Shown here in pieces: positions 1,071 through 59,028 of a stretch of DNA of 64,000 nt (position 1 is the first letter of the stretch; every line of letters starts with the position of its first letter). The position numbers and the translations under genes were made by a program. This DNA is from Eledone cirrhosa. Taxonomy: Eukaryota. Location of the stretch: contig OZ024742.1 of assembly GCA_964016885.1 (NCBI GenBank), positions 254,634,001 through 254,698,000 of the forward strand, in the 5' to 3' direction. The notes beneath the pieces are model-generated. The model did no database searches, was not told the origin of the DNA, and saw nothing but the letters and a program-made list of their open reading frames with translations.

Positions 1071-4000
1071 CCTTGAATCTCAGTCATTGATGTTGGTTAA
1101 CTGGAAAGTCCGTTGGATTGAATATCAAGCCACTACCTGCAGCCTCAGATATTCAGGACGTATCGGAGGGTTCTTGCCGTTCCAAGCAAGCATGCCTTTT
1201 GAAGCGTTCCAAAAAGCGTGAAGGGGCCGATTTTCTTTAACCATCCCTGGAAACCTTTGGAGATAGTCCCCAGTGCGCCTATGACAATCGGGATCACTTT
1301 GACTTCATGGCAGTTCCAAATCCTTTTCACCTCCCACTTTAGGTCCTGGTATCGGTTAATTTTCTCCCTCTCCTTCTCTTGCACTCTCGTGTCGAACGGG
1401 CAGGCCACATCCACAATCAGGCACGATCTTTTTTCTTTGTCCACAACCACCAGGTCAGGTCTATTGTGTTCCAGTTTTTTGTCCGTCTGTATCCTAAAAT
1501 CCCACAGCACCTTCACCTGACTGTTCTCCATCACCGCCTCTGGCCTATGCTCATACCATTTCTCAGAATGTGGTAGATTGTTTACTTTGCACAGGTGCCA
1601 GTGGATCACCCTGCCCATCACATCGTGTCTCCAGCCCTTATAGTGGGTCTGGGCTAGGTGTTTACACTCGGACACAATGTGAGCCACAGTCTCCTCTCTC
1701 TCTCCACAGATCCTGCACAGTGGGCTAGCCTCCTCCTTGTAGATATGGTGCTTCAACCACTTCGTTTTGAGGGCCTGCTCCTGCGCAGCCATTAGCATTC
1801 CTTCTGTAGCCTTTTTGAGGTCTCCTCTTCTCAACCAGTTCCATGTCTGTGGATCTCTAAATTCAGTTTTCTCAAAGAAGGTACTATGAAGGGATTTTCC
1901 CTTAAGGCTGCTCTTCCTCCTTGATGTTATTTCCTCCTTGGGTATCCCCTGGCCTACTCTCCCCTCCTTCAGTACAGCTCTGAGCATTGGCTCCTTACTA
2001 TAGGTCACGTATTTGTATAGGTTGTTTTTCTCCATCTGAACACAGTCCTCTATGCTGATAAGACCTCTTCCACCCTCAGATCTCCTTAGGTAGAGTCTAT
2101 CGACATCACTCCTCTTGTGGAACATGTTGTAGATAGTCAATAGCTTCCTAGTCTTCCTATCCATTTCTTTTTGTTCAGCAACATTCCATCTCAGAATTCC
2201 CGCACTGTACCTAATAATAGACACAGCTCGGGAATTTACTGCGCTTATGGCATTTCTGCTGTTCAGATGTGACTTCAATACGCTCCTTACTCTCCGAATG
2301 TATTCAGTTCTTAACAATTCCTTCATTTTTTTGTTCTTTATGCCATCAGCCTCCAGAACGCCCAAATACTTGTATCCTTCCTCAGAGTCAATTTCCTTTA
2401 TCATCTCACCTGTTGGTATCTGGATCCCGTTACTTCTGCTCAACCTACCCCTCCTCATCACAATGACTCCACATTTACCAATACCAAACTGCATACATAT
2501 ATCACTGCTGAAAATACGGACAGTGTCAACAAGCACATCCAACTCCTTCTCACTTTTCCCGAAGAGCTTAAGATCGTCCATGAAGAGGAGGTGATTGATG
2601 GTAAGCTCTCCCCTTCCCAACTTGTATCCTGCTCTCACTTTTCGCAGCATAATGGTCAAGGGCATCAGGGCAAGGACAAACAACAGAGGGGACAGGCTAT
2701 CTCCCTGGAAGATACCTCTCTTGATCTTCACGCTTCCCAAGGATACTCCAGTTGATGTCAACTCTGTCTCCCAGGACCCCATACTCCTGCCCAGCAACTC
2801 TCTGATGTTATCTGCCACCCTGAAGATCTCCAGGCTTTTGGTGATCCAGGAATGAGGCACCATGTCAAATGCCTTTCTGTAGTCTATCCATCCCATGGCA
2901 AGATCAGTGTGTCTCCTCCTGCAATTCCCCATTACCATCTTATCAATAAGCAACTGGTCCTTTGTACCACGTGACTTCTTTCGGCATCCTTTCTGTTCGT
3001 CCGGCAACAAGTTGTTTGTGTGGAGGTGATGGTAGATTTCCTCAGACACAATGCTCGTCAACAGTTTCCACATTACGGGCAGACATGTGATAGGTCTATA
3101 GTTGGTAACATCATTACCCTTGATTCGGTCTTTCATTATCAGAACTGTGGTACCTTTTGTCAACCACTCTGGCACCTCACCCGACACCAAGCAGTCATTG
3201 AACATGGCCGTCAGCTTCGGGTGGAGGGATGTTAAATGTTTAATCCAATACCCCTGCACACCATCTGGGCCTGGTGATTTCCAGTTGGTTAGTTTTTTGG
3301 CTTGCCCCTTAAGAGTTTCAACTGTGATACTCAAATCAGTCTGTTGCTGTGCCTGCTCACCGATCTCCCTCTGTACTGTCTCAATCCACCCTGCCTGGGC
3401 ATTGTGTCTAACATCCTGCTCCCATATTCCTCTCCAGAATGTTTTAGCTTGTTCCGCCCCAGGGATCAAGTCGGTGCCTCTTTCTTTCCCCTCAAGCTGT
3501 CCAAACAGCATCTTCTGGTTGTTGTCGAACATGCGGTTCTGTTTATACTGACTGACTCTGTTCTCGTATCGCCTGATTTTGGCACTCTTTGCTACAATGC
3601 GTTGCTTCAATTCCTCTATGATAATATTTAGCTTTTTACTCCTAGTTTTGTATTTTATTTCCAGTCTATTTTTAGTGCCTATGTTTTTTAGTGTCCCATT
3701 CAGTAGTGACTCAAGCTTTCCTATGTCATTTCTCATTTCCCCGATTTGCCCACTCAGTCGCTTCTTCCACCACGGCTCTGCTCTTTCTTGTCTGTTGTTT
3801 CCTCTCGCTTTTATACCAAGTAGTTTCCTCACCGTATTTGCTGTTGCTTTGAGGATATTGTTGCACTGGTGAAGACTCCTCGCCTCAAGGTATGGGATGA
3901 CTTTGTTTACCTTAGCTGTTGTTTCTTTTAACTTTTTCCTGTCTACAAATCTTAGGTTCATAGGTCTCCCACTATCATTGTTCAACTCATCTACCACTAA

Positions 4001-5376
4001 ATTTAGGATGTCAACCGAATCTTGTCCTAGCCCGTCAGCATTCATCTCCTCAGTGGCCGTATCTCTGTTCCAGGTATTATTTATCTCAGTATTCAGATCA
4101 TTGTCTGCTTCGGGTGGTTCCTCCGCTCTCAGGACCTCCTCACCTTCATTTCCCGCCGGCTCGCTTGTCTGGCATACTACACCCGCCATCTCCAAGCCAT
4201 TCTCTCTGCTCAGTTCCTCCAGTTCCAGCTCGCTTATCCACCCATTAGTTCTTATTACCCGAGCCTGCCCGGCCAATTTTTGTTCATCTAATTTAAATAA
4301 ACCAATCTCGTTCCAGATGTTATGCATCCGTCTCCTGTAGCCCCTCTCCTTGGGGTTACTTTTCAGGTAGCATTGCATAACAGTTCTATTCAATTCTTTC
4401 GTCCAGTTGGTTCTGGCCCCTTTCCTTCTTCTTCTTCCTCCAACATCAGCAGTATTTCGTTGACAGTCAGGTTCCTGCTGCTGAGCCAGGGGGCACCTGT
4501 TGGGTGAGAGTCTGTCACATGACGTTCTAGTCTCCATTTCACCGTTATTCGAACTGTTTATGTTCGATATTTAAACACTCTTATCGAGGATTGGCGAATG
4601 TATGTTTACATAGCCATCTGTGGATCCGCCATCCCACTTGGCCCTTGTGTGGCATTATCACCACGCTGTATACGGACACACATAAACAAACAAACACACG
4701 GGCAGAAAGGGCCCCAAAAATGAATAAGCATAAGTTTCATTGTAATGTAGTATTCGAATGTCTGACTTAGTTTTTGTTTTTTAAGTTTTACTTTTTCCCC
4801 CCTCTTCTCTGTCCGTCCGCCTGCCTCTCTCTTCATTCTTATTTTCTTTACGTTTTGGGGGTTTCTTTTTTTGTTTTTGTTTTTCTCTGTTTTTCTCGTT
4901 TTTTACTGTTGTTGCTGTGCTGCTTTTGTTGTTTATTTTTTCTTTTTTCTTTTGAGTCTATCTATATATTTTGATGCCTTCCTCTTTTTTAGCAGTAGGG
5001 ATTCTATAATGTGGTGGCAGCAGCCAGCTAAAAGAAGAAGTGGGAGACTGGCGGCGGTAGCGATACTGAGACAGTGGTGGTGGTGATGTCGATACCGAGA
5101 CAGTGGTGGCGGTGATGTGACCGTATTACTGTAGCGATGGTGCTGTAGCGGTGGCAGCAGTGAAGGAGTGAAGGGGTGGTGGCGGCGGTGATGGGATAAT
5201 GGTTGTAATGATGGCCGTAGTGATCGGTGGTGGTTTAGTGTACACAGGTGATAGGGTGGGTGGTGTATCTAGTTTCTGGTGTTGGTGAGTTTGGCTGTTC
5301 TATATAGTGTATACAGAGGAGGAGGGGGGGGGGGGGTTCTTCTTCCATTTATAGCCATTTTCTTTTTTTTATTTTC

Positions 5377-16595: not shown

Positions 16596-17629
16596 ATATA
16601 TATATATATATATATCAAATTATAAAATAAGAAGAAATAGTAGACACAGATATATACCCATTTTTTCTTCAAAGCCTCGACTGTACCGTATGCAACAATT
16701 GCACATTATGGATGTGCAATATTGCTGTGAGGCACACCAGCTTCTCAAAGAACACCTCAGGGAATGAACGTTTTCCAGATACGTTTGTAACACGTGACAA
16801 AATCTCTATAGGTGGAGGGAGAAATTAACGCGTAATGTATCGGTCAAGAAAGAGGACTGATTCCCTTGTAGCAAGTGAAAATATTTCAAAGGGTGGAGGG
16901 AGAAATTAATGCATGATACAGAGGTCGCAGGCGGGTAGTAAGGTGGATGGAAAGTAATTATAGTGTTTGCTTGAGAAAGCAGTTACTACACTTTCAGGTT
17001 AACTCAACCATAGCGGAGTTTGAGACCATATAATAATGAGATACACACTCATACATGTATATATATATATATTTTTCACATGTATGTGCGTGTGTGGGGT
17101 GTCAACCTTAACCAGTTTTGCTTGATGATCAGGAGAGACAAAATAATCAAAATATTTAAATTGACTCGATATCAGAGCTACATATCAAATTATAAAATAA
17201 GAAGAAATAGTACACATATATATATATATAAATGAAAGCAAGAGGTACAAGGAGAGAGAAGGGGGAGAGAGAAAGAGGATAGCAGTAAGGTGATAGAAAA
17301 AAGAAAAACCACAGCGAGGGGAAAAATTATATATGAATTAAAAAATGGCGTGCTGCGTTGTTGCGAGTGGGATACATATGAATGAAAATAGGGCGAGAAA
17401 TGGGACTGCCCATCATCAGTGATCTGCTGACTATCATTGGTATTTCTTTGCATTAAAGACCAGATACTTCAAAATCAGTGCGAGCAATAACTAAAATAAA
17501 TTATTGGGATAGAGCAAACTGGATGGAGAAAGAAGTACTGTAAACAAACAACATAGTAGTAATGCAACATAAAGAGAGGAAAAGAGAGACAAGTCAATGA
17601 TACTTGTGAACTTAAGTTCAAACAAATCG

Positions 17630-18351
17630 ATCGACCGCAGTTCCGACGTCACAGCCTTTTTGATGTCGTCCACGTCTTCAAAACGGGTCCCCTCCAGGTC
17701 GTACTCGGAGATCCATGACTCATCGCCAGTGATGACTGTCCCTAGCAAGTCTGGTTCGGTTTCAAGATGCTCAAGGATGTCCTGGCACACTTGCATGCGT
17801 TGACCCTTCTGGTCATCGTTCAGCAGTTTTGGACCCATCTTTGCGCAGACTTTCCGCATATCCAAATCTTCAGTGAGAATCTTCCAGACGCTGTTCCGAT
17901 TCATGCCCAGCTCATTTGCCATCAGTCGAACAGTCAGCCGACGATCGCTATGCACCATCTGCCTGATGCGCTCAATGTTGACCTCAGTCTTGGTTGTTGA
18001 GGGCCTTCCGCTCCTGGGGTCATCTTGCACCACTCCGTAACACGTGAGCGTGACATCGTCTCATCTCCATACACTTGCTGCAGCAATCCCAGTGCTTCTG
18101 ACGGAGTTTTCCCCAACCATACCAGAAACTTCAAGTTTGTTTGTTGCTCTGTGTTCATTGCTTGACGACCTGAAACAGAGGACATGTATATAAAATTATG
18201 AAGAAAAAAGTGTGATCGCTTCAGAGAGCTAAGATTACAGTTACATACTCCAGTGGGATTACTTTGAAGGAGAAAACTCTTAGTGTGAAGTTTGGGTTTG
18301 AAATAAATCTTTTGTGACATCAGTCCTGGAACTTTTCTGACACACCTCGTA
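17630..18351 (-). mobile_element. Internally deleted, frameshifted mariner transposon with one TIR
   Basis: DDPRSGRPST, DRRLTVR, RKVCAK, VITGDESW, GTRFEDVDDIK motifs. TIR tacgaggtgtgtcagaaaagttcc abuts (TA)n. Confidence 0.85.
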
Positions 18352-18679
18352 TATATATATATATATATAGTAATAATAATAAATGCAAAGACTAAAATCT
18401 AAAGAGGGCTTGATAAGGATAAATATATATCAAATAGAAAACATGAGTGGAACAGCAACATCACAACTTACAATTAAGGACAAAATGAAAACACACACAC
18501 ACATAGAACACACAACCAACCAGTAACATGTAAATAAACAAATAAATAAACGAATATAAACACACACAGACACCCGGATGTAACACATGCGCAAACTAAG
18601 CACACAACACACACACAAAAACAAGATGGCGTAGGACAGAACAAAGGAGAGACACAAAAAACAAAGAAAAGAATCCCCA

Positions 18680-18950: not shown

Positions 18951-19122
18951 AGGAATTTATAAATATATTTTAGGAATTTATAAATATATATATATATATA
19001 TATATATAAATTGAAAAAAAATGAAAACGAAATTTCATTTCTCACTCTAAGTATGGCACTTACTTAAATGTAAGTATGTATGTATACGTACATACATATA
19101 TGTATACAGACGTACAGTAGCA

Positions 19123-19162
<40 letters not shown>

Positions 19163-19331
19163 TATACATATATGCATACAGGTACACATACATATATGCA
19201 CGCATCAGTTTAGCCGACGTTTATTATAACGCCGCTTTGTTCGTTTGTTTGTCAACAAACCGAACAGCCTGAATTTATGCCATACGGTGTTAAGGCAACC
19301 ACGTCACCTTTTTGTTCAACACTGACACAGG

Positions 19332-19376
19332 AACGATGTACTAGTTTCAAGCTTGTTAGCTATCATCAGCACCGTT
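19332..19376 (-). ncRNA. Minimal type I hammerhead ribozyme (array copy, inverted arm)
   Basis: Reverse complement of the motif at 20055-20099. Confidence 0.8.
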
Positions 19377-19611
19377 TGCCCATCTGCCAGATAGTTGAAC
19401 GTTCGAAAGTATATACTTTCCTTATGAAAATTAACGGCTGAGCAGCCTAATTTGCATATTGAGTGAGTTAAATCGGTCAGGCATACCGAAATCGATAAGT
19501 TGAAAAAAAATGAAAACGAAATTTCATTTCTCACTCTTAGTAAGGCACTTACTTAAATGTAAGTATGTATGTATACGTACATACATATATGTATACAGAC
19601 GTACAGTAGAA

Positions 19612-19713
<102 letters not shown>

Positions 19714-20054
19714 TATACATGTATGCATACAGGTACACATACATATATGCACGCATCAGTTTAGCCGACGTTTATTATAACGCCGCTTTGTTCGTTTGTT
19801 TGTCAACAAACCGAACAGCCTGCTACTGTACGTCTGTATACATATATGTATGTACGTATACATACATACTTACATTTATGTAAGTGCCATACTAAGAGTG
19901 AGAAATGAAATTTCGTTTTCATTTTTTTCAACTTATCGTTTTCGGTATGCCTGACCGATTTAACTCACTCAATATGCAAATTAGGCTGCTCAGCCGTTAA
20001 TTTTCATAAGGAAAGTATATACTTTCGAACGTTCAACTATCTGGCAGATGGGTA

Positions 20055-20099
20055 AACGGTGCTGATGATAGCTAACAAGCTTGAAACTAGTACATCGTT
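20055..20099 (+). ncRNA. Minimal type I hammerhead ribozyme (array copy 1)
   Basis: AACGGTG-CTGATGA-t-AGC taacaa GCT-t-GAAAC TA GTA-CATCGTT. Stem I is 7 bp; stem III is the palindrome ACTAGT; predicted cut after 20092. Confidence 0.85.
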
Positions 20100-20257
20100 C
20101 CTGTGTCAGTGTTGAACAAAAAGGTGACGTGGTTGCCTTAACACCGTATGGCATAAATTCAGGCTGTTCGGTTTGTTGACAAACAAACGAACAAAGCGGC
20201 GTTATAATAAACGTCGGCTAAACTGATGCGTGCATATATGTATGTGTACCTGTATGC

Positions 20258-20320
<63 letters not shown>

Positions 20321-20555
20321 TGCTACTGTACGTATGTATACATATATGTATGTACGTATACATACATACTTACATTTAAGTAAGTGCCATACTAAGAGTG
20401 AGAAATGAAATTTCGTTTTCATTTTTTTTCAACTTATCGTTTTCGGTATGCCTGACCGATTTAACTCACTCAATATGCAAATTAGGCTGCTCAGCCGTTA
20501 ATTTTCATAAGGAAAGTATATACTTTCGAACGTTCAACTATCTGGCAGATGGGTA

Positions 20556-20600
20556 AACGGTGCTGATGATAGCTAACAAGCTTGAAACTAGTACATCGTT
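20556..20600 (+). ncRNA. Minimal type I hammerhead ribozyme (array copy 2)
   Basis: Identical to 20055-20099; predicted cut after 20593. Confidence 0.85.
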
Positions 20601-20769
20601 CCTGTGTCAGTGTTGAACAAAAAGGTGACGTGGTTGCCTTAACACCGTATGGCATACATTCAGGCTGTTCGGTTTGTTGACAAACAAACGAACAAAGCGG
20701 CGTTATAATAAATGTCGGCTAAACTGATGCGTGCATATATGTATATGTACCTGTATGCATATATGTATA

Positions 20770-20869
<100 letters not shown>

Positions 20870-21104
20870 TGCTACTGTACGTATGTATACATATATGTAT
20901 GTACGTATACATACATACTTACATTTAAGTAAGTGCCATACTAAGAGTGAGAAATGAAATTTCGTTTTCATTTTTTTTCAACTTATCGTTTTCGGTATGC
21001 CTGACCGATTTAACTCACTCAATATGCAAATTAGGCTGCTCAGCCGTTAATTTTCATAAGGAAAGTATATACTTTCGAACGTTCAACTATCTGGCAGATG
21101 GGTA

Positions 21105-21149
21105 AACGGTGCTGATGATAGCTAACAAGCTTGAAACTAGTACATCGTT
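21105..21149 (+). ncRNA. Minimal type I hammerhead ribozyme (array copy 3)
   Basis: Identical to 20055-20099; predicted cut after 21142. Confidence 0.85.
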
Positions 21150-21324
21150 CCTGTGTCAGTGTTGAACAAAAAGGTGACGTGGTTGCCTTAACACCGTATG
21201 GCATACATTCAGGCTGTTCGGTTTGTTGACAAACAAACGAACAAAGCGGCGTTATAATAAATGTCGGCTAAACTGATGCGTGCATATATGTATATGTACC
21301 TGTATGCATATATGTATATATATG

Positions 21325-21412
<88 letters not shown>

Positions 21413-21465
21413 TGCTACTGTACGTCTGTATACATATACGTATGTACGTATACATACATACTTAC

Positions 21466-21508
<43 letters not shown>

Positions 21509-21605: not shown

Positions 21606-21662
21606 GTTTTTATTAGCCGACAATGTTTCGTCCTATTAAGGACTCATCAGGGCAATCAAAAC
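21606..21662 (-). ncRNA. Type I hammerhead ribozyme with canonical GUC site
   Basis: gttttgattGCC-CTGATGA-GTCC ttaata GGAC-GAAAC ATT GTC-GGCtaataaaaac. Confidence 0.85.
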
Positions 21663-28330: not shown

Positions 28331-29289
28331 ATAAATAAATAACAGTAGTGCTCTTGCAGTATTTTTATGGTGTCATATAGAGAGAGCCTTGTAGAGTTTG
28401 TACAGACTCTGTGTTTTGAGTCAAATTTCAAATCACAGTTTTACTGTTATCATTGATATAGCTGATCTACAGACATTCCATAGTGTTATTCGAAACAACC
28501 ACCAAATATTAAAGATCAATGTGACATTTTGAATGTTTTATTTGCTGTCACCTTTGCGAGTCTCTCTCTCTCACACACACATACACATGCAACACGCTCC
28601 CATACACATGCACACACACACACATACACATGCAACATGTGCACACACACACACACACATGCACACATACACTCACATATACACAATCTTATAATCCCCT
28701 TTTCATAATGACATTTAATAACATGGGATTATTAAAAGAAAATGTTCACTGTTGTTGTTGCCACTACAATTAGCAGCAGCACAACCACCACAGCTTACTT
28801 CCTCCCTCATACTCATATAGACACATACTCACAGACATTCCTATATCTCATTCCTCTAATTCTCTCCATATTCATTTTCATCACTCCTCACTTTCTGTCA
28901 CATTCATCCTTTTTCAACACATAACTCAATTATCTCATTCCATTACTCTTCCCAGCATTCATCACTGGTTCTATTCCCATCACCCAGTCAGTTTCATCCT
29001 TCTTCAACACATAACCGAACAATCTCATTTTCATTTCTTTTCATAACATTCATCATTGGCTCTATTTCTCTCACACATTCACTTTCATCTTTATTCAACA
29101 CATAATCCAACTGTCACATTTCATTTCTCTTCATGACATTCTTTATTGACTCTTCTCCTATCATCTTCTGTGATTCATTGTTTAACTCCCAATCTTTCAG
29201 CAATAATCCACTAATCCACTGAAACATTCTCATTTCCATTTCCCCCCATCTTCTCTACTGCCCCACATTTATAACCTATGTCTTCCCCA

Positions 29290-30950
29290 CTGTCTCTGTT
29301 ACACCACATTCATCAACAATGACTTTCCCACCCCCTCTGTTATACCACATTCATCACCCCTGTTTCTTCCACATTCTCTGTAACACCACAATCATCATCC
29401 ATGTCTTCCCTATCATATCTGTTACACCACATTCATCACCCATGCCTCCCCCACCTTCTCTGTTACACCACATTCATCACCCATGCCACCCCCACCTTCT
29501 CAGTTACACCACATTCATCACCCATGCCTCCCCCACCTTCTCTGTTACACCACATTCATCACCCATGTCTCCCCCACCTTCTCTGTTACACCACATTCAT
29601 CACCCATGCCTCCCCCACCTTCTCAGTTACACCACATTCATCACCCATGCCTCCCCCACCCTCTCTGTTACACCACATTCATCACCCATGCCACCCCCAC
29701 CTTCTCTGTTACACCACATTCATCACCCATGCCACCCCCACCTTCTCAGTTACACCACATTCATCACCCATGCCTCCCCCACATTCTCAGATACACCACA
29801 TTCATCACCCATGCCTCCCCCACCTTCTCAGTTACACCACATTCATCACCCATGCCTCCCCCACCTTCTCTGTTACACCACATTCATCACCCATGCCTCC
29901 CCCACCCTCTCTGTTACACCACATTCATCACCCATGCCTCCCCCACCTTCTCAGTTACACCACATTCATCACCCATGCCTCCCCCACCTTCTCTGTTACA
30001 CCACATTCATCACCCATGTCTCCCCCACCTTCTCTGTTACACCACATTCATCACCCATGCCTCCCCCACCTTCTCAGTTACACCACATTCATCACCCATG
30101 TCTCCCCCACCTTCTCTGTTACACCACATTCATCACCCATGTCTCCCCCACCTTCTCTGTTACACCACATTCATCACCCATGCCTCCCCCACCTTCTCAG
30201 TTACACCACATTCATCACCCATGTCTCCCCCACCTTCTCTGTTACACCACATTCATCACCCATGCCTCCCCCACCCTCTCTGTTACACCACATTCATCAC
30301 CCATGCCACCCCCACCTTCTCAGTTACACCACATTCATCACCCATGCCTCCCCCACCTTCTCTGTTACACCACATTCATCACCCATGCCTCCCCCAACTT
30401 CTCTGTTACACCACATTCATCATCTATGTCTTCCTCACCCTCTCTGTTACACGACAATCATCACTAAGTCTTCCCCATCATCTCTGTTACACCACATTTA
30501 TCAGTTGTGTCTTCCCCACCCTCTCTGTTACACCACATTCCTCAAGAATGTCTTCCCCACCCTCTTTGTTACACCACATTCATCATCCATGTCTCCTCCA
30601 CATTCTCTATTACACCACATTCATCAAACAAGTCTTCCCACCCCTTCTGTTACACCACATTCATCAACCGAGTCTTCCCACCATCTCTGTTACACCACAT
30701 TCATCACCCAAGTCTTCCCCACCTTCTCTGTTACACCACATTCATCAACCACCTTCCCCACCACCTCTGTTATACCACATTCATCAACCGAGTCTTCCCA
30801 CAATCTCTGTTACACCACATTCATCACCCAAGTCTTCCCTACCTTCTCTGTTACACCACATTCATCAACCACCTTCCCCACCACCTCTGTTATACCACAT
30901 TCATCAACCAATCTTCCCACCATCTCTGATACACCACATTTATCAACCAT
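29290..30950. repeat. 41-bp minisatellite, ~40 copies, homogeneous core and diverged edges
   Basis: Unit gttacaccacattcatcacccatgcctcccccaccttctct with starts at 29421, 29462, 29503... Confidence 0.95.
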
Positions 30951-31119
30951 GTATCTCTATCAATTATAATTATTCTTGCTCCATGAGCCAATGCATGTAT
31001 CATATTATGTTCAGTTGTTGGCAAAATACTACATTCGAAGTCTTAACCAGTTTTTCTGTAAAATAAATAAGCAGAAGTATATCTGAAAAATATAAGGATT
31101 TTTTTATTGACGACTTTCA

Positions 31120-33392
31120 AGGATTATCTCCCCCTGGTGTATTGTTAGTGATAGCATTTATGAATTATCTGCCCTTGGTATATTGTTTGTGATGGGATTC
31201 ATGGATTATCAGTCCGTAGTTGGATTTCACAGATTGTCAGCCCCTCGTGTATTGTTAATGGTGGCATTCATGAATTATCTGCCCCTGGTGTATAATTAAT
31301 GATGGTATTCATTGATTAGCTGCCTCTGGTATATTGTTAGGGATGGCATTCATGAATTATCTTCCCTGGTGTATTGTTAGTGATGGAATTCATGAATTAT
31401 AATCCACTGGTCAACAGCCAAAATGGTTCTTACATGTGAATATGTGCCTCTTACTAATTTCATAGCACTAAATTCAGTTTTGATATTCATTTTTTGCTAT
31501 CAGACCAGAATGCCTTAATATGAGATCGAAAATATGTTCCTCGTATTGCATTATTTATCCATTGTGTAACATATGAATATAGACATATTAACTTATTAAT
31601 AAAAATATATAAACATATTTTTATATATTTTTTTAACACTTAGTATATTAACAAAACATTTCTGAACAATATTCTGAACATAACAAGATATTTCAAAACA
31701 TTTCTAAAAAAATTTCTGGATTTTGTTTTTACGCTTCTTTTGCTGGCTCTCCTCACGTCGCAGTGTCCAGCAGTAGTCACCCATCATGTTGGGATTGAAC
31801 CGACCCTGATACCTACTCTCCATTATGGCAATGTCCTGGTGAAACCTTTCTCCATGTTCATCACTGATGTCTCCTAGATTACTTGGGAAGAAATCCAGAT
31901 GAGAATGGAAAAAAATGAAGCTTCAACGACATTCGTGAACCCAGAGCGCGATAATTTTGTATCATGGTTTCAACAATTTCTTTATAGTTGTCTGGACGGT
32001 GGTTTCCAAGAAAGTTCTGTGTCACATCTACAAATGATTTCCATGCATTAGTCTCCAAAGGGTTTAGTGTTTTCGTAAACTCACTATCATTAACCAGTAT
32101 ACGAATCTGAGGACCATTCAAAACCTCTGCTTTTAACTTTGCTTCAGGTACCACTGTACACAATTTCTTACACAAGTACTGAAACCCATTACCTGTATGA
32201 TCCATGCTTTTAATAAAGTTTCTGGCCAAGCCTAATTTGGGATGTAATGGAGGGAGGAATACTTTTTCAGGATCCACGAGAGGTTTGTACAGACAGTTGA
32301 ATCTACCGGGTGCATCCTTTGGTCTTGTTGGCCAATCCTTCTTCATGTTGTGCTCCGCATCTGCTCTACTATTCCACGAACATAGAATACACATATGCTT
32401 TGTGTAACCAGTCTGAAGACCTAGAAGTAGACTAATTAAGTTGTTTATGACGATGACGAGCGGTTGTAATGCCGACGCCAGATTCCAGCAGGTTTCGTTG
32501 CTTTAGTCTTGATCCCAGGAGCTCTACCTTATCTTTAGACACATGTAGGTCTCTAATGAGATCGTGAAGAGATTCCTGGTTAAATGGTATGGGTTCACTT
32601 GTCTCATGTTCGTCTTGATAGTCATCATCAATAGGGGTGCTACTGGAATCAGAATCAGAGATTAGCTCGTGTTCAGCAGGTGGAACTGGAACAGGTAATT
32701 CGTCACTGTGAGGTACTGGTTGGATTGCTGTCGAGATATCGGGGTATTGAAGTGTAGTTTGTGTCTTCAGAGTTATTCCTTGGATGTTTATATGGCAGAA
32801 GTAGCAATCGTTATTGTGGTCTTTGGTTCTCGCCACACTGAGGCGCCCATTTCTTGTCTTCGTCTACTAATGGACATTTGAAGTAGCATTTGTAGTTTAC
32901 TCGAACTGCTTTTGTGATTGGTTTCTTTATGCTTTCTGGGGTAAAGAGTCCACAAATATAGCAAAATCGGTCCGGGTCATTTACACATTTCCAGTGTTCC
33001 GTCTCTCCCACTAGTCAAAGTTGTTGTGAATTATCCAAGAATAGCTGAGGATAGTTACAATTCTGTGATCTGAAACAAAAGCAGTAAGTATAAATTAGTT
33101 AACAACTAAATATAGTGGATACAATTGGATGAAGTAATATGAGCCACGTAGCTATGAGTCATAAACATGGATATGCTGGTTCTTGAAAACTAGACCCGAT
33201 ACAGCTTAACCGTTGTCATATTCAGATTCTGCACACTTGATTACCCTAGAATCATACTAAATTATACCACAACCATGAAATGAATATTTTTTTGTTGACC
33301 AGTGTATTGTTAGTGATGGCATTCATGGATTATCTGTCCCTAGTGTATTGTTAGTGATGACATGAATGGATTATCTGCCCCTGGTGTATTGT
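31120..33392. repeat. ~41-bp minisatellite split by a DNA transposon (31120-31404 and 33305-33392)
   Basis: Unit tgtattgttagtgatggcattcatgaattatctgcccctgg occurs on both sides of the insertion. Confidence 0.85.
31405..33304 (-). mobile_element. CMC/Chapaev-3-like DNA transposon, internally deleted and frameshifted
   Basis: TIRs CACTGGTCAACA / TGTTGACCAGTG. Transposase pieces: FCYICG, DCYFC, DLIRDL...ELLGSRLKQRNLL, GLQTGYTKHMCILC, LPPLHPKLGL, GPQIR, SDEHGERFHQDI, DYCW. Confidence 0.8.
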
Positions 33393-47525: not shown

Positions 47526-49063
47526 AATGCTTTCTGATTTAGGCACAGGGCTAACAATTTGAAGGGAAGGGGATAGCCGATTAAATTGGCCTCAGTGCCT
47601 TACTGTAGGGATTTAAATAAGAATGGAAAGAGATGTAACTATATACCACAAAGCATGTTTTCCCACACTACTAATACTGTGAATCCACTGCCCTAATAAT
47701 GGATTCTGATTTAGGCACAAGACCAGCAATTTTGTGGGGAGGGGAAAGTCGATTAAATCAACCCCAATATGTGACTGGTACTTCATTTTATTGACCTCGT
47801 AAGGATGAAAGGCAAAGCTAACCTTGGCAGGATTTGAACTACATACTGCAGAGCATGTTGCCCAATGCTCTACAGATACTGCCAATCCCCTGCCCTAATA
47901 ATAATAACAATTATAATATTGATAATAATAATAATTTATTTATTTGGCCTCAAGGACCCAGGACATTGGGGACAATACAAGGACAAAGACAAGACAACAC
48001 AAAGCGACGTTTCCATCTAGTAAAGAAAAGAGGACATCAATGAAATGAAAACAATAGAAATAACAATAATAGAAATTGTAATTAATATACATAACAATAG
48101 AAACGTTTCTTTATTGCCCACACAGGGCTAACATTAAGAAAATATTAAATATGGCACAGGATGAATTAGTTTGTTTTGGTGTGTAAAAAGCTTATATCAA
48201 AATCTTAATATTTGGAAGCATCATGAATTAAATGACCAGCCCTGATCATGAAGGACAAAGAGAAAGGGTCTCAGGTCAAAAACTATAGACCAATAACTTG
48301 TCTCCAATAACTTGTTTCTATGGAAACTTAACAAGTATGGTTGCAGAAAGTATCTATGATCACCTAGATAATAAACTATGGTCCCTAATGAATAGAAAGG
48401 GTGTTGGAGAAATTCTTATGTATATATTATGTGTGTTTGCGTATATATACATTTAGAGAGAGAGAGAGGGTATATATAAAAGTATATATGTTATGTTTAT
48501 GTATAATTGTTTCTTTCTTTATTTATTTCAATGATTTTTTAAATATATTTATGTAAAATAAATATATATGAATCTTGTTATGAATGTTTTAAGTGTGATC
48601 ATGATACAGCTATTTCAATAGTTATCTGAGAGCACCAGGCACTACTGTTTCACAAAATTTTATATTCATCATCAGTGACATTCACTCAGAATTGAGATAA
48701 AAATAACTTTTAAACTTTTATGCTTTACATGCAAAAACATCTGATCAAAGCTCTTTTGTCACACATTCTCTGACCTTATCAATGGCTATTTGTTGTTCTT
48801 CTCACTTACTCTTCTTTCAAGACAAGATAGAGTAAACACAATAAGACCTGAAAGAAGAGAAGGCACAGAGAAAAAGTAGTCATTGAGGAAGTCACAGCAT
48901 GTGAAATAATAAATAAATAATAAGTAATAATAATAAAGCTTAAGTGAAAGTCAAATAGTGCATGTGTTTTTATTGTCAAAATTGGCAACACGACAAACTC
49001 CAAACATAACAATATTTGTTTTAACACATGAATCTACATCAAGAATCTTGCAACACAAATATA

Positions 49064-49101
<38 letters not shown>

Positions 49102-49106
<5 letters not shown>

Positions 49107-50163
49107 GTCAAGTAAAAATATTTTCGAAACAGAGAGCGAGTTTGAAATTATAAATGTAAGCTATCGCCGTATTTTGACTAAAGAAATTAAAGAAAATTAT
49201 TTAGCTTGATAGTGGGGTTAAGAATCTTCGGGGAAATGGAAAAAGATGAGTATTGATTTACATGGGAGTTGAACCCACATCTTTGGTTATCCAGACCACT
49301 GTGCTACCATTACACCAACACATCACCTGTCTTTTACCATTCGAATTAAAAGCTATAATCTTAGCAACTGTAAATGTCAAATAAGAATATTTTCGAAACA
49401 GCGAGCGAGTTTGAAATTATAAATGTAAGCTATCGCCGTATTTTGACTAAAGAAATTAAAGAAAATTATTTAGCTTGATAGTGGGGTTAAGAATCTTCTG
49501 GGAAATGGAAAAAGATGAGTATTGATTTACATGGGAGTCGAACCCACATCTTTGGTTATCCAGACCACTGTGCTACCATTACACCAACACATCACCTGTC
49601 TTTTACCATTCGAATTAAAAGCTATAATCTTAGCAACTGTAAATGTCAAATAAGAATATTTTCGAAACAGCGAGCGAGATTGAAATTATAAATGTAAGCT
49701 ATCGCCGTATTTTGACTAAAGAAATTAAAGAAAATTATTTAGCCTGATAGGGGGTTAAGAATCTTCGGAGAAATTGAAAAAGATGATTATTGACGTACAT
49801 GCGAATCAAACCCACATCTTTGGATATCCACTATCAGGCTAATTAATTTTCTTTAATTTCTTTGGTCAAAATACAGCGATACCTTACATGTATAATTTCA
49901 AACTCGCTCGCTGTTTCGAAAATATTCTTACTTGACATTTACAGTTGCTAAGATTATAGCTTCTAATTCAAATGGACAAAGACGGGTGATGTGTTGGTGT
50001 AATGGTAGCACAGTGGTCTGGATAACCAAAGATGTGGGTTTGACTCCCATGTACGTCAATACTCATCTTTTTTCATTTCTCCGAGGGTTCTTAACCACAC
50101 TATCAGGCTAAATAATTTTCTTTAATTTCTTTAGTCAAAATACGGCGATAGCTTACATTTATA
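49102..50163. repeat. Tandem (269-bp x2.7) plus inverted array between (TA)n tracts, carrying a tRNA-like unit
   Basis: Unit starts at 49102, 49371 and 49640; orientation flips at ~49828 (tggatatcca). Confidence 0.9.
49988..50058 (+). tRNA. tRNA-like cloverleaf, anticodon position GGA, probably a pseudo-tRNA (minus copies 49254-49324, 49523-49593)
   Basis: Acceptor GATGTGT/GTACGTC, D arm GTGT-AATGGTA-GCAC, anticodon arm TGGT-CTGGATA-ACCA, T arm GTGGG-TT(C/T)GACT-CCCAT, T-run ~10 nt downstream. Confidence 0.6.
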
Positions 50164-53100
50164 ATATATATATATGTATAAGGCTGATGAATACACATGC
50201 TTTTTCTAAAAAAAAAGATGTTTCCTTCTTTCCTCTTCACACTCTCTATCGTGCAATCATGACACTTCACCTACCCAGCCCATGAAAGCTAAACATCTGA
50301 CCTCCCACAATGTTGTGTCATGACAAAAAGCACAAAGTTCACCCTGTATGCTGGTTTGGCACCACAACAAAAGCACCCTGTCCACCCTGTAAGGTGCTCA
50401 TGATAGTGACATGACAAAAAGCACACAGTTACACTGTAAGATGGTTCTGTTGGTGACATGACAAAAAACACCCAAATCACACTATCAAGTAGTCATTTTG
50501 GTGCTATGATAAAAAGTCCCCTGTCCTCACTGTAATGCGGTTGGTGTTAGGAAGCGCATCAAGCTGCAGAAGCCAAGCCAAAATACAGATCTGTATAAGC
50601 AAGATGTGGTCTCTGGACTTGACTTGTCTCATAACATGACAACCCATATAAACCAGGCAAGTGTGGAAAATGTACGTTAAACGATGATAATGATGATGAT
50701 GATAATATATAATAGGTGTTTAGTTCGATATAATGGTTGCTGCATAAAAGCCTACATATATATATTTATATTCATTTATATAGTTTTATATACACTTTAA
50801 AAGCTACGTGTCCAGGTCAGGAATTACTTCCAATGAATATATTCACATTGATATATTCATAATCAATTAATCAATAATGTATTTCTCTGTCCGTCTGCCT
50901 GTCTGCCTGCCTGTCTGTCTGGTCTGTTGTCTCTTTAACGATAGCAAATTGTCAACAAACCATGACGAAATAGCCATTTTCTATTTACATTTAGAAATCT
51001 TTCACTTAATTTCCATCACTAATGCCCTCGTCAGTCTCATGTTTGTCACACATTTTTTCAATGGATTCAATACAATCAATAATCAATGAATTATATTGCT
51101 TCTTTTAAAAGGTGATATAATTATTACAGATTGATTTCTGTGTTGATATATTATCCATTGGTCTTAGTTGAGATTATTATGGCTTGTCAGCCATGCTTGT
51201 ACATATATACATGAATATCTGGTTTGTACTCTGATGTTTTATTCATATATGCACATATAATTGTTTTTAAACAGTGACATTTTGACTGGAAAATAATGTG
51301 GCTAAAATCCCACTAGTACATAATACACAAAAAAAGGACACATTTGGCATTATAGTCCTGTATATTTTTGAAATGATGGATGTTCACTATGTAGATATCT
51401 GTGTAATTAATCAGATTTTAAACCTTTTGATATCAAACTGCCAGAAACAATCTCTTATTTCATGATAGAAATCTTTTTGTTTTATAGTGTTTATATTTGT
51501 TTAAAAAAATAACTTTCCATGATAATGCTATGTAAACACAATTGTTATGTTCCAAATATCAGGTTAATGATCAGAAAATTGATTATAATTGATTTTATTA
51601 CAAAATCCTTTGAGTATCTTGAATATTTTCAAAAATGATTTGAAAATTATAGACAGTGCCTGTCACTAGAAGTATGGCAATGAACGGGTTAAAACTATAG
51701 GTAGTGTCTTTCATTAGAAATATGGTAACAAAAGGGTTACAGTAAAAATATGGCTTCAGTTTGCATTATATGAGGATGGATCATCCTTTGGAGGATCTTT
51801 CAGTTGTCTAATCAACTGATTATGCAATTTGTGAAAATAAATGTAAGTGGTTGAGTACCCTACAGACATACTTCTGTTTACCCAATTTTACTTACAAGGT
51901 TTGGGTTGACTCAAAGCTTAGGTAAATTACACTTGTTCCCAATATGTAATGCAATGGGATCAAAAGAAGGACCTTATTATTGTGCAGTAAACTTTGTAAC
52001 CACTTTTTTTAATATATATACATGTTTAGTGATTTTTTTCAAATGAATTATGAATATTGGAAATTGAAACTAAAATAACAATAATTATTCCACATTTAAT
52101 AATTTTTGAAAACATTTTACTTTTTCCTAACCATATTTCTAATGAGAGACAAAACCATTGATTTTCAAATAATTTGGAAAATTCTTGATATTTTCCAAAT
52201 TAATAAAATAACTTTCTTATTATTAAGATAAACTTGAAAAGTACAAAACATTAGTATGAATGCATCAAAATAATATACTATTATAGTGAATATTTTCAGA
52301 ACAATCTGTCTGCTAGTAAAGGTACAAAAAACATTTGAATTAACAAATACATTTTTATGTATATTTTTTGCTAAGTCATTATGGGATATTAAAAGTTAAG
52401 CTGGTAGTTAGAACATTACTTAATGAATATTCTTAAATAAAATATGATGGAAGTTAAATATAAACACTTTAAAACTAGAAGTTTCATATTATAGAACCAG
52501 GGGTGGTTTCATGAGGTTTGATACCAAAAGATTTTAGAAAATTCTTTGAAACTTTTGGCACCAGCATTCAGTGTAGAATTAATCAGGAATGTATAACACA
52601 ATTCCAAATGTAATTAAGTGAAGCATATTTCAAATGATATATTATATTTTGTGAAGGTGTGTAGCTTAGTGGTTAGAGTGTTCAGCTCATGATCAGGAGG
52701 TCATGAGTTTGATTTTTGATAGTGCATTGTGTCCTTAAGCAAGACACTTTATTTCATATTGCTACAGTCGACTAATTTGACAAAAGTGAGTTGTACCTGT
52801 AACTCAAACATTATTTTGCAAATAATCTCCATAACAACTGCATTAAAAGTACATGTGTTTGTAGAATGCCCAGCCACTTATATGTTAATTTAACAAGTAG
52901 GTCCTTCTGTTGATTGAACAACTGCAACACACATAATCAAAACTGATGGGTGTCCATTTATTTATACCTAGCAATGTTCTACAAAATAAATGTGTCTTTC
53001 AGTATTTAACCCTTTCATTACTATATTTCTAATGAAAGACACCACTATGATTTTCAAATAATTTTGAAAAATAATCAAGAATTTCAAAGGATTTAGTAAT

Positions 53101-56808: not shown

Positions 56809-56991
56809 GTTTGTATATGTATAATAAAGCCAAAACAATGCAGGTATGGACATAGAATAAAGAATGCAAATGCAAAAGATATTGTTGAAAATTAGTCTTT
56901 TACCTTAGATTTATTTAAATGTCCTTAATTTTTGAGATAATATCTCTTCTTCGGGGAGAAGTAAAGCGATTAAACCAGTGTTCTAAATAGC

Positions 56992-58648
56992 TTGCCAAGT
57001 CATGCTGACAGGAAATGCTCCCGAGAGGAATTAGACCTCCTCAGTCTCGGTCCCAAGTTCATATTGAAACAGAGACTGGGCGACAAATTATGGCTCGACA
57101 TAGAAACGAATTTCTGTCGGGCTGCCTACCAACTAAAATCGATATCGACTCTCGGCAACAATACCACGGAATCTAACAAACCCAGATTCCCGATATACCA
57201 ACTGGATCGCCCACTCTGTCCACCGCCTGCCAACTGTGAGCTTGAAGAAAAACTCTCGAGGCTAAAACATTCCGTATTTAACATCTTATGGAAACAGAAG
57301 AAGATAGCCCCAAACCTCTCCGGGACACAACTCGCCCTGAAGAACCTACGGAATAGGGAACTTATATACTTAACATCCGACGAAGGTAAATCGTTTTGCG
57401 TCATCTCTCAAGACACATACAACAACCTAGCCTCTGAACATCTAAGCGAAAATGTACTATATACAAAGATCCCGGACATGACTGCAGCCCAGATCGAAAA
57501 ACAGACCAACTTCATCTGGTTCGACATCTGTAGGAGAAGACAACTCCCAAATAAAGTTAAGCTCAACTACACCACTAGAAATAGCAGCCTGCCCACTTTC
57601 TACCACCTCATCAAGATCCACAAGAATAGTACTAAGACACAAATAAGACCCATCGTCTCTAGCATAGAAGGACCCCTATACAAAATTTCCTGGCTCCTCT
57701 TCCAGGTCCTCAAGCCTCTATTCTCCACCTTTCCCGGGCATGTCAGTAGCTCCGACGAAGTCATACGTAGACTACACCAACTCCAGCCAGAACAACTTAA
57801 ACTAAATAGATACGCCTTTAGCCTCGACGTTGTCTCACTCTACACTACAGTCCCCGCTCATCCAACTGTTGATTTATTGACGGACTGCGTGGTCGCAGAG
57901 GACATCCACTGCTACGGCCTCCATCCGACGGACATACACCAGCTTTTGTCCTTCACAGTGGACAACACATACTTCACCTTCCACCACCACACATACAGAC
58001 AGACAACAGGATTACCCATGGGATCCAGCCTATCGGGCCTGCTGGCCATCACCTATATGAACCAGCTAGAATGCCGAGCCCTCAACACCTGCCATTCCCA
58101 TACCTTCTTCACCCGATATGTAGATGACATACTCATCCTTACATCATCCCGTGAGGAGGCGGATAAAATATACACAACATTCTCCAGCATGGACGCCAGT
58201 ATAAAGTTCACTGGACTTCCAACTCAGGGTAACCGAGGAAGGCAACATCCACACATGCTTCTATAAAAAAGCCGCCAGCAGGGACCTGTTCGTACATTTC
58301 AGATCGGCCCTCCCAGCCGGTGCTAAGTTCGGATACATAAGGAACGAACTAACACGTATCCGGAACAAATGCACCGACGCTAGAGACCGAGACACACACA
58401 CCACACATCTCCTGGAAGTACTCAAACTGAACGGATGAACGACATCCACCACAAACCGTGCCAGAAAAAACAGAGGACACCACACCCGAGGCACTAACAC
58501 TTGCTTCCTGAAGCTCCCACACTTCAGTGACCAAATAACAACAGCCATCCACAGAGCTATCAAACGAGAGGGACTAGATATCCAACTGGCCCACTCAGGT
58601 CCTTCTCTACGCGGACAGCTAACCAAAAAGACACTCCACCAGACATGA
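56992..58648 (+). pseudogene. Penelope-like element reverse transcriptase, 5'-truncated, frameshift at ~58210
   Basis: LSLGPKF, FYHLIKIHK, IRPIVS, SLDVVSLYTTVP, GLPMGSSLSGLLA, TRYVDDIL. Continues in another frame as LDFQL...FYKK...HFRSALP...LKLNG*...LKLPHF. Confidence 0.9.
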
Positions 58649-58705
58649 CAGTGTGTGCGGGGTGCTTTTTGCATGACCACTTTACAGTGTGGGCTTTGGA
58701 TATTT

Positions 58706-59028
58706 AAATATGTGGGGCCACATCTAACTTTTTTAAGAAAAGATGGTATGTGCACACCTATTCTTTTAAGAATCACGAAGTTCGCAAATCCGCCACGTTG
58801 GCTAGAAAAATATATGATTTAACGAATGAAAAAATAGAATATCAACTGTCATGATCTATTATGCGCTATGCACACCCCTACGAATGTGGAAAAAAGGATT
58901 ATGATCTTTGTGTGACAGAAGTATTGGAAATCATGACAGGGAAGAATTTACTAAACTCTAGCCAGGATAGAATATTCAACTGTAAGCATAAATACCTAAA
59001 AACATCCTCTAAATACAGTCCAAACTAA
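58706..59028 (+). pseudogene. PLE-type GIY-YIG endonuclease fragment
   Basis: Hand translation with one frameshift and one stop: KYVG/ATSNFFKKRWYVHTYSF...ATLARKIYDL...AHPY...DLCVTEVLEI...LLNS...CKHK. Confidence 0.7.

Follow-up and report, generated by a model that had tools for sequence, protein, structure and literature searches.

Short non-coding repeats that resemble the locus reported here are known from several systems. Non-LTR retrozymes are made of short non-coding tandem units, range from monomers to large arrays and are proposed to be mobilized by Penelope-like elements, or PLEs (passages of PMC7229834 and 10.64898/2026.07.22.740005). The repeat family described below is like them in these respects but lacks a hammerhead and carries a tRNA-derived cloverleaf, and in a comparison made from DNA alone no pLTR sequence link was found. 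In the sections of PMC8557442 that describe PLE insertions, these contain partial tandem copies plus a 5'-truncated copy in inverted orientation, are tailed at one end and target (TA)n, and their two-armed layout with outward 3' ends is given as not seen in non-LTR TPRT. MRC1/Chlamys and Naiad, as laid out in those sections, share with our family the partial tandems, the inverted 5'-truncated copy, the one-end tail, the (TA)n and the absence of a canonical hammerhead; our family differs in having a tRNA-like domain and in tails that exceed 30–40 bp in two of its subfamilies (B and E). Schistosoma SM-alpha, in the portion of PMC6765202 that deals with it, likewise consists of tandem non-autonomous units with Pol III-type boxes in which an upstream unit may transcribe the next, whereas an active hammerhead is present in SM-alpha only and a T-run follows the tRNA in our family.

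Two further groups contain tRNA-like sequence. Helenus/TRIMp3 elements have it in a terminal repeat, and like our family are non-autonomous and not LINE-driven; Helenus has LTRs, PBS, PPT, 4–5 bp TSDs and LTR machinery, whereas our family has PLE ends (passages of PMC10886601). Judged by layout, membership in this group was rejected, as there is no unique internal part between units and the inner ends are variable. SINE2 elements, according to the same passages of PMC10886601, also combine a tRNA-derived segment containing A and B boxes with thousands of copies. In contrast, the tRNA of our family is not at the 5' end, a LINE-like tail is missing and the insertions are two-armed PLE insertions. 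SINE2 membership was likewise rejected, the tRNA occupying unit 47–117 of a permuted unit with no pile-up of 5' ends at unit 46–48 and no LINE-type end.

The window, by which we mean the whole analysed stretch of 64,000 nucleotides from Eledone cirrhosa (GCA_964016885.1, contig OZ024742.1, positions 254,634,001 to 254,698,000), contains one two-armed copy of a repeat that is dispersed and non-coding, carries a tRNA-derived cloverleaf inside the unit and lacks a hammerhead. The features of this insertion are collected in Table 1. Units are numbered on the tRNA-sense strand of the 269-bp repeat, from window position 49639 down to 49371, which places the cloverleaf at unit 47–117 and tRNA base A58 at unit 102. 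TRF resolves the left arm as 2.7 copies of the 269-bp unit with 96% matches, the inverted arm is 93% complementary to the left arm, the CCA at the junction is common to both arms, and (TA)n lies on both outer sides. The preliminary description had proposed exactly this tandem and fold-back structure, with its CCA junction and (TA)n bounds, and it is confirmed by TRF, by alignment of the inverted arm and by the sequence itself. The 71-nt cloverleaf that it reported, with a CT-GGA-TA loop, a short variable loop and a run of five to six T residues, is also present, with ARAGORN and Rfam in agreement, and the acceptor stem is fully paired (7/7) in the 49988 copy only, as had been stated; both left copies carry the same two substitutions. 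Copies 1 and 2 have in common seven substitutions that are missing from the other units, including both acceptor-breaking ones, and two further substitutions are common to all three left-arm units. Because the seven are common to copies 1 and 2 only, these copies arose by duplication after insertion, and the 2.7 units are thus partly a local duplication with some homogenization. The loop of the predicted 3' stem contains the short end, and one two-sided change between subfamilies was seen in this stem by eye.

Table 1. Features of the two-armed insertion in the window and loci with arms that stop near the five-base motif.
Feature	Position	Strand
(TA)n target microsatellite, left flank	49059–49103	
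Left arm, 2.7 units reading outwards (unit 78–269, 1–269, 1–269)	49102–49830	-
Long ('tailed') 3' end of left arm	49102	-
Tail, unit 225–269; found only at this insertion end	49102–49146	-
Copies 1 and 2, 98% identical	49102–49639	-
tRNA-like cloverleaf, copy 1, acceptor damaged	49254–49324	-
tRNA-like cloverleaf, copy 2, acceptor damaged	49523–49593	-
Third cloverleaf, 3' half only; left arm's 5' end in the anticodon loop (unit 78)	49791–49830	-
Head-to-head arm junction, CCA microhomology	49828–49830	
Right arm, unit 156–269 and 1–224; short 3' end at 50165	49828–50165	+
Purine-rich leader, 5' strand of predicted ~18-bp stem extending the acceptor helix	49970–49987	+
Best-paired 71-nt cloverleaf, unit 47–117	49988–50058	+
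A box in the 49988 cloverleaf	49995–50006	+
Anticodon loop in the 49988 cloverleaf	50018–50024	+
A58 in the 49988 cloverleaf	50043	+
B box in the 49988 cloverleaf, C56 changed to T in that copy	50037–50047	+
Overlapping 4-bp palindromes, unit 107–115; site of most family head-to-head junctions	50048–50056	+
Trailer with T6 run (50068–50073), 3' strand of closing stem	50061–50078	+
5' strand of predicted 3' stem, unit 201–207 with 236–242	50142–50148	+
(TA)n target microsatellite, right flank	50160–50178	
Loci with arms stopping just 3' of the five-base motif	L093, L095, L163, L165, L169, L322, L325, L330	

The absence of a hammerhead from the unit, also noted in the preliminary description, was borne out by two approaches. 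Rfam detected none in the window element nor in seven loci of other subfamilies, and a hammerhead descriptor gave none in the element and none in 6/6 subfamily consensuses as compared with four in the 19.0–21.5 kb array of the window; this descriptor is not exhaustive, because it missed an Rfam hammerhead at 21612–21656. The C-block, required in all hammerhead permutations according to the relevant part of PMC10085705, is missing from the sense strand of all six consensuses. Antisense or scrambled-order hammerheads were rejected as well, as the core-like words of the antisense strand are scattered and not conserved and fail stem I. The array at 19006–21467 is itself two-armed, with internal (TA)n and four type I hammerheads (cores at 19369 on the minus strand and at 20062, 20563 and 21112 on the plus strand), and its family is dispersed, with a 97% match in L071 and 75–80% matches in L072 and L055. 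The hammerhead at 21612–21656 (minus strand) is a separate type I motif outside the array unit that scores 31.7 bits with Rfam (gathering score 34). Elsewhere in the window are a broken Penelope-type RT element (56974–58818) that is 90–92% identical to L071, L075 and L080, a 41-bp minisatellite repeated 42 times (29243–30951) and, by eye, a young non-LTR retrotransposon with an uninterrupted 1141-aa frame containing RT motifs (1145–4570, minus strand) and two decayed transposase-like frames (17491–18398 and 31879–32863).

The repeat is not a one-off but exists in thousands of dispersed copies, with at least 5,800 exact 3'-motif matches in its own genome (3.0 Gb, 1796 contigs). A first-look search of this genome gave 2377 candidates, and the 40 that were scored are mostly tandem or inverted. 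Exact matches numbered 476 for a 27-nt 3' motif of subfamilies A/A2, 4907 for a 17-nt 3' motif of B/C/D, 420 for a 16-nt motif of E, 599 for a 32-nt tRNA motif and 1264 for a leader plus trailer motif; each reversed control gave 0. Six subfamilies were distinguished, with unit lengths of 259–290 bp (consensus A 269, A2 271, B 290, C 260, D 259 and E ~287 bp). Divergence from their own consensus is star-like, with subfamily medians of 2.8% (B) to 7.4% (E) that are biased low as the copies were chosen by motif. A possible seventh, more distant subfamily in four loci (L334, L338, L342, L348) has the changed T-loop and, in addition, further variants of the anticodon loop. Subfamily B also forms a satellite of at least 55 kb on contig C28, from position 19441199 (19.44 Mb), in which 333 of the 342 trimer matches listed lie on one strand, and because of this satellite the 599-, 1264- and 4907-match counts show a strand excess. 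SINE-derived satellites on record offer a precedent for such an array (PMC10702118). Two smaller arrays of the family are located at C4:61009630-61012411 and C4:264917472-264925885.

ARAGORN makes three tRNA-Ser(GGA) calls in the window element, and the Rfam tRNA model scores it at 47.1–47.3 bits (gathering score 29, E about 6e-7), compared with 60–75 bits for the best genome tRNA hits scored. tRNA-Ser genes have a long variable arm, and the anticodon loop of a functional tRNA is conserved, with U33 and a purine at position 37. In our family the variable loop has 4 nt, the T5–6 run lies 10 nt downstream of the cloverleaf, and four anticodon loops occur among the six subfamilies: CT-GGA-TA is common to A, B and C, while A2 has CC-GGA-TA, D has CG-CGA-TA and E has CC-GGC-AA; position 37 is a T in A–D. 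The 4-nt variable loop, T37 in A–D and the varying anticodon loop rule out a functional tRNA-Ser gene, in keeping with the doubt first raised about the Ser identity. The earlier suggestion of a captured tRNA gene holds only as a statement of ancestry, for the loop is not preserved as an anticodon. The genome-wide check of what the consensus retains has a divided outcome: the cloverleaf is kept and the acceptor stem of the family consensus pairs fully, but the anticodon loop varies. The D arm shares 17 identical bases, with one gap, with host tRNA-Gln, although the tRNA-Gln genes compared had been found with that same D-arm motif. A comparison covering Gln, Thr and one tRNA-like repeat family gave 43–49/71 overall identity to candidate parents, the repeat family itself giving 43–48. 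This tRNA-like family (L246–L261), which is dispersed, has variable anticodons (mostly GGC) and was found among 16 Rfam hits of 40–75 bits, probably represents the head of a SINE and has a T arm similar to the one in the window repeat family. L144 and L146 (G000:C1:168.217-168.220 Mb), called 'Pyl' by ARAGORN, are tRNA-Gln-derived with a CTA anticodon and a mismatched anticodon stem, lie within a tandem Gln cluster and are probably decayed.

The tRNA part is the best conserved portion of the unit, with 58/72 columns invariant over the six consensuses compared with 30/80 in the 3' part. In subfamily E all four changes in cloverleaf stems keep or improve pairing, whereas covariation analysis of 16 copies was null (0/27 pairs with a two-sided change, and 91.6% of cells pairing, which is not above shuffles); set against this null result, the E changes suggest selection on the cloverleaf fold. 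The A and B boxes are intact in A–D by comparison with the consensus boxes and the B box is broken in E, while in subfamily B the two uppermost acceptor pairs are lost. In 6/6 consensuses the T-run is predicted to pair, as the 3' strand, with the purine-rich leader in a 17–19-bp helix (-17.9 to -23.4 kcal/mol), and both run (T5 in A–D, T7–8 in E) and leader are longer in E. G-U pairs favour the tRNA-sense strand of A (-36.0 versus -27.6). The folding z of consensus A is near -2.6 on both strands, the antisense scoring as well, and single copies give -1.0 to -4.6 in sense and -0.03 in antisense, with modest values of -1.0 and -2.0 for the window copies. The 72-nt piece alone does not form a cloverleaf by energy (z of -0.2 to +0.2).

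In order to describe insertions independently of the tRNA letters, arms of A–D were sampled by their 3' motif (85 loci from 100 among the matches listed of 476, plus 70 from 100 of 4907), which after duplicate removal left 210 arms in 137 loci. The outer end of an arm is always its 3' end, at one of two fixed sites: a short one at unit ~224 and a long one, at 258–269 in A, giving tails of ~35–45 nt in A, C and D and ~65 nt in B and E. Two-armed loci make up 67/137, and 62 of these 67 pair one short with one long end (four have two short, one has two long); the corresponding numbers for subfamily E are 20/24, three and one. A dinucleotide repeat is reached within 8 nt by 179/210 arms, and target-site duplications are unreadable within (TA)n. 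Partial tandems, in which an arm continues into the preceding unit, were seen in 23/210 arms. Eight of these 23 end -2 to +9 nt from an invariant five-base motif, in arms starting at the short or the long site alike; these otherwise unexplained stops may mark an RNA end. Of the variants in 20 multi-unit loci, 47 occur in every unit that covers the site, 376 in a single unit and 31 in some of the units, and within a locus variants can be common to both arms (e.g. L005, L009, L012). Such sharing within loci is as expected if each insertion had a single template and its units then aged independently.

Elements with RT and GIY-YIG, identified as such with Pfam, abound in the genome (10,596 GIY-YIG candidates), and autonomous two-armed RT plus GIY-YIG loci have short and long ends in 3/3 inspected (L076, L042, L077). 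We regard it as very probable that PLE machinery mobilizes the repeat family. Amplification by such machinery, one of the options raised in the preliminary description, is supported by the short and long ends, the inversions and the (TA)n targets, and the internal tRNA, the lack of an A-tail and the two fixed 3' ends set the family apart from an ordinary SINE. A 3' end shared with an autonomous PLE was not found when the six consensuses were compared by BLAST with 50 GIY-YIG loci drawn from 150 scored of the 10,596 candidates, which gave microsatellite or chance-level matches only. Eleven short motifs had no sequence match among the PLE consensuses supplementary to PMC8557442. A search of the genome with a degenerate Naiad motif gave 0 matches, an uninformative result as no Naiad-type locus was obtained. 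The long end of E shows an 11-base likeness to the end of one RT-GIY-YIG family (L047, L080), both before a (TA) run; it is below BLAST significance and we treat it as a lead only.

Inner ends are concentrated beside A58. Among A–D arms that reach unit 117, 98/147 end at unit 101–117, a break-off rate of 3.9% per nt as compared with 0.3–0.45% elsewhere, and only 3/49 end at unit 87–100. Nine ends fall at 101–104, 30 at 107 and 45 at 108–112, and three overlapping 4-bp palindromes are present at 107–115 where head-to-head arms join. One-armed loci share the excess (36/53), so inversion is not the cause of the pile-up. Subfamily E, in which A58 is changed to T, was sampled through a 3' motif of its own (70 loci from 80 among the matches listed of 420, yielding 89 arms in 62 loci) with the 101–117 window kept fixed. 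Here 11/59 arms end in the zone compared with the 98/147 of A–D (Fisher p=2.6e-10), a count that retains three E ends that look like internal deletions; with one arm per locus the values are 8/41 and 64/96 (p=6e-7). E keeps the T-stem and palindromes identical and differs at two bases of the T-loop, A58 and the one that follows. Subfamily B keeps the break-off (13/17) despite its lost acceptor pairs. In the passages of PMC11019740 on this modification, m1A blocks pairing and truncates reverse transcription, and TRMT6/61A writes m1A on tRNA A58. Since the A58-changed E loses the pile-up with the same T-stem and palindromes, a block of reverse transcription by m1A58 is indicated. The copied RNA was probably folded as a tRNA and methylated at A58, and the genomic DNA likely records this methyl mark of the RNA. 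As most ends lie 4–11 nt 3' of A58, trimming must be assumed under the m1A58 reading. Copies that pass A58 show no excess of misincorporation at this base (3/122 substituted). E is older than A–D and may have used another RT; this, the absent misincorporation and the break-off kept by subfamily B all count against the m1A58 reading. Loss of the tertiary fold of the T-loop would produce the same contrast in E, and both readings need tRNA-like folding of the template. E arms also pile up at unit 55–71 (14/33 compared with 0/37 in A–D; L362–L431), for which one may guess at a stall at the D arm or at a further modified base close to tRNA position 9. Apparent 5' ends at unit 87 were rejected as an alignment artefact that was gone with anchored extension.

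We propose that the PLE RT and GIY-YIG endonuclease copy a tRNA-folded, A58-methylated RNA, a mechanism that as a whole we lean slightly towards. Transcription of tandem copies, most probably by a route other than Pol III acting on the internal boxes, would yield a longer-than-unit or circular RNA, and the cloverleaf, clamped by the leader-trailer stem, would act as a folded, host-modified stabilizing module and not as a cutting site. The PLE enzyme would nick (TA)n, and each of the two target ends would prime cDNA, with the short and the long site as starting points. m1A58 would then halt about two-thirds of the cDNAs near unit 103. Their ends would be trimmed as far as the nearest microhomology, in the palindromes at 107–115 or in the microsatellite, before head-to-head joining. 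Later unequal exchange would extend some arrays, by one unit in the window and into the satellite on contig C28.

The pile-up might instead be a structural stall at a folded T-arm elbow that E lost together with the U54–A58 pair, or might reflect an RNA start near 103–108. Most ends do lie at 107–112, at the base of the T-stem, and there is no misincorporation signal, but the 5' edge of the zone at 101–104 is past the stem base, few ends occur at 87–100, E has an identical T-stem and no consistent extra G was seen at junctions by eye. We consider these explanations rather improbable. We are similarly doubtful of a Pol III promoter role for the tRNA part, in which leaky termination at the T-run of a partial tandem would let the upstream unit transcribe the following one, and both cloverleaf and methylation would be by-products. 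The boxes of A–D, the invariance of the tRNA columns and the precedents in the relevant passages on SM-alpha (PMC6765202) and TRIMp3 (PMC10886601) are what would be cited for it, together with a broad excess of ends at unit 37–54 (11/37 arms, 2.7 expected, p=4e-5 with the window chosen post hoc); however, 26/37 arms continue past this zone, only 3/19 end there in E, and E spread (420 exact matches) with a broken B box and a T7–8 run. The T-run, 10 nt past the tRNA, had been taken for a Pol III-type terminator. All sampled copies carry, and would need, sequence beyond it, and the run pairs with the leader; since an efficient stop there would remove the 3' end carried by all copies, it is not the terminator of the copied RNA.

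The preliminary description had also suggested that RNase P/Z cutting takes the place of a ribozyme. RNase Z cutting would give ends at unit 118 and RNase P cutting ends at unit 47. Ends do not accumulate at the RNase Z site (2/149 arms at unit 117–119, 1.9 expected) or at the RNase P site (1/37 at unit 46–48, 0.5 expected), and the tRNA as a ribozyme substitute is thus unsupported, although this is a weak test because a cut followed by ligation leaves no trace in DNA. More generally, cutting by RNase P, or by a nuclease acting on the anticodon loop with subsequent ligation by RtcB, could yield monomers or circles, which would fit the ribozyme-free yet retrozyme-like layout, the circularization of retrozyme RNA by RtcB (in the passages of PMC7229834 on this step), the implication of the A58 result that tRNA enzymes see the RNA, and a second broad excess at unit 72–86, in which the window left arm ends (9/46, 2.8 expected, p=0.002, post hoc; 10/43 in E). 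The 72–86 ends are diffuse, however, the ~18-bp leader-trailer pairing spans both the P and Z sites, and B lacks its top acceptor pairs; we find such processing quite unlikely. A wider version, a class of PLE parasites in which the tRNA mimic replaces the hammerhead, is unlikely in our estimation. In it, tRNA enzymes of the host would modify the transcript, cleave it at the anticodon loop or RNase P site and circularize it, and the thousands of genomic copies would form a datable modification record; the recorded marks would be m1A58 and perhaps, in E, a second one near position 9. Finally, an ordinary tRNA SINE mobilized by LINEs, inverted through twin priming and duplicated locally, would explain a tRNA-derived part with A and B boxes and the duplication of copies 1 and 2. 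It is very improbable: the tRNA is internal, with 46 nt upstream, head-to-tail continuation and no A-tail, and outer ends that are both 3' at two fixed sites are contradictory to it in the 62/67 short plus long loci.

Taken together, the repeat behaves in the manner of non-LTR retrozymes or non-autonomous PLE derivatives but belongs to neither the retrozymes, having no hammerhead, nor the SINEs. A tRNA-bearing element mobilized by PLEs was not found in the open-access literature (Repbase and SINEBase being outside this scope), and an O. vulgaris repeat annotation, in the passages of PMC13282606 that report it, gives SINEs and PLEs as classes only. For annotation, the family means thousands of copies that will be wrongly labelled as genes for tRNA-Ser(GGA) and other unusual tRNAs. 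It also offers a ribozyme-free substrate of 260–290 nt, with two mapped priming sites, for studying the origin of tandem, inverted and tailed PLE insertions. Its subfamilies amount to a natural experiment, with E as the A58 mutant control: an RNA modification seems to be readable from where the DNA copies break off.
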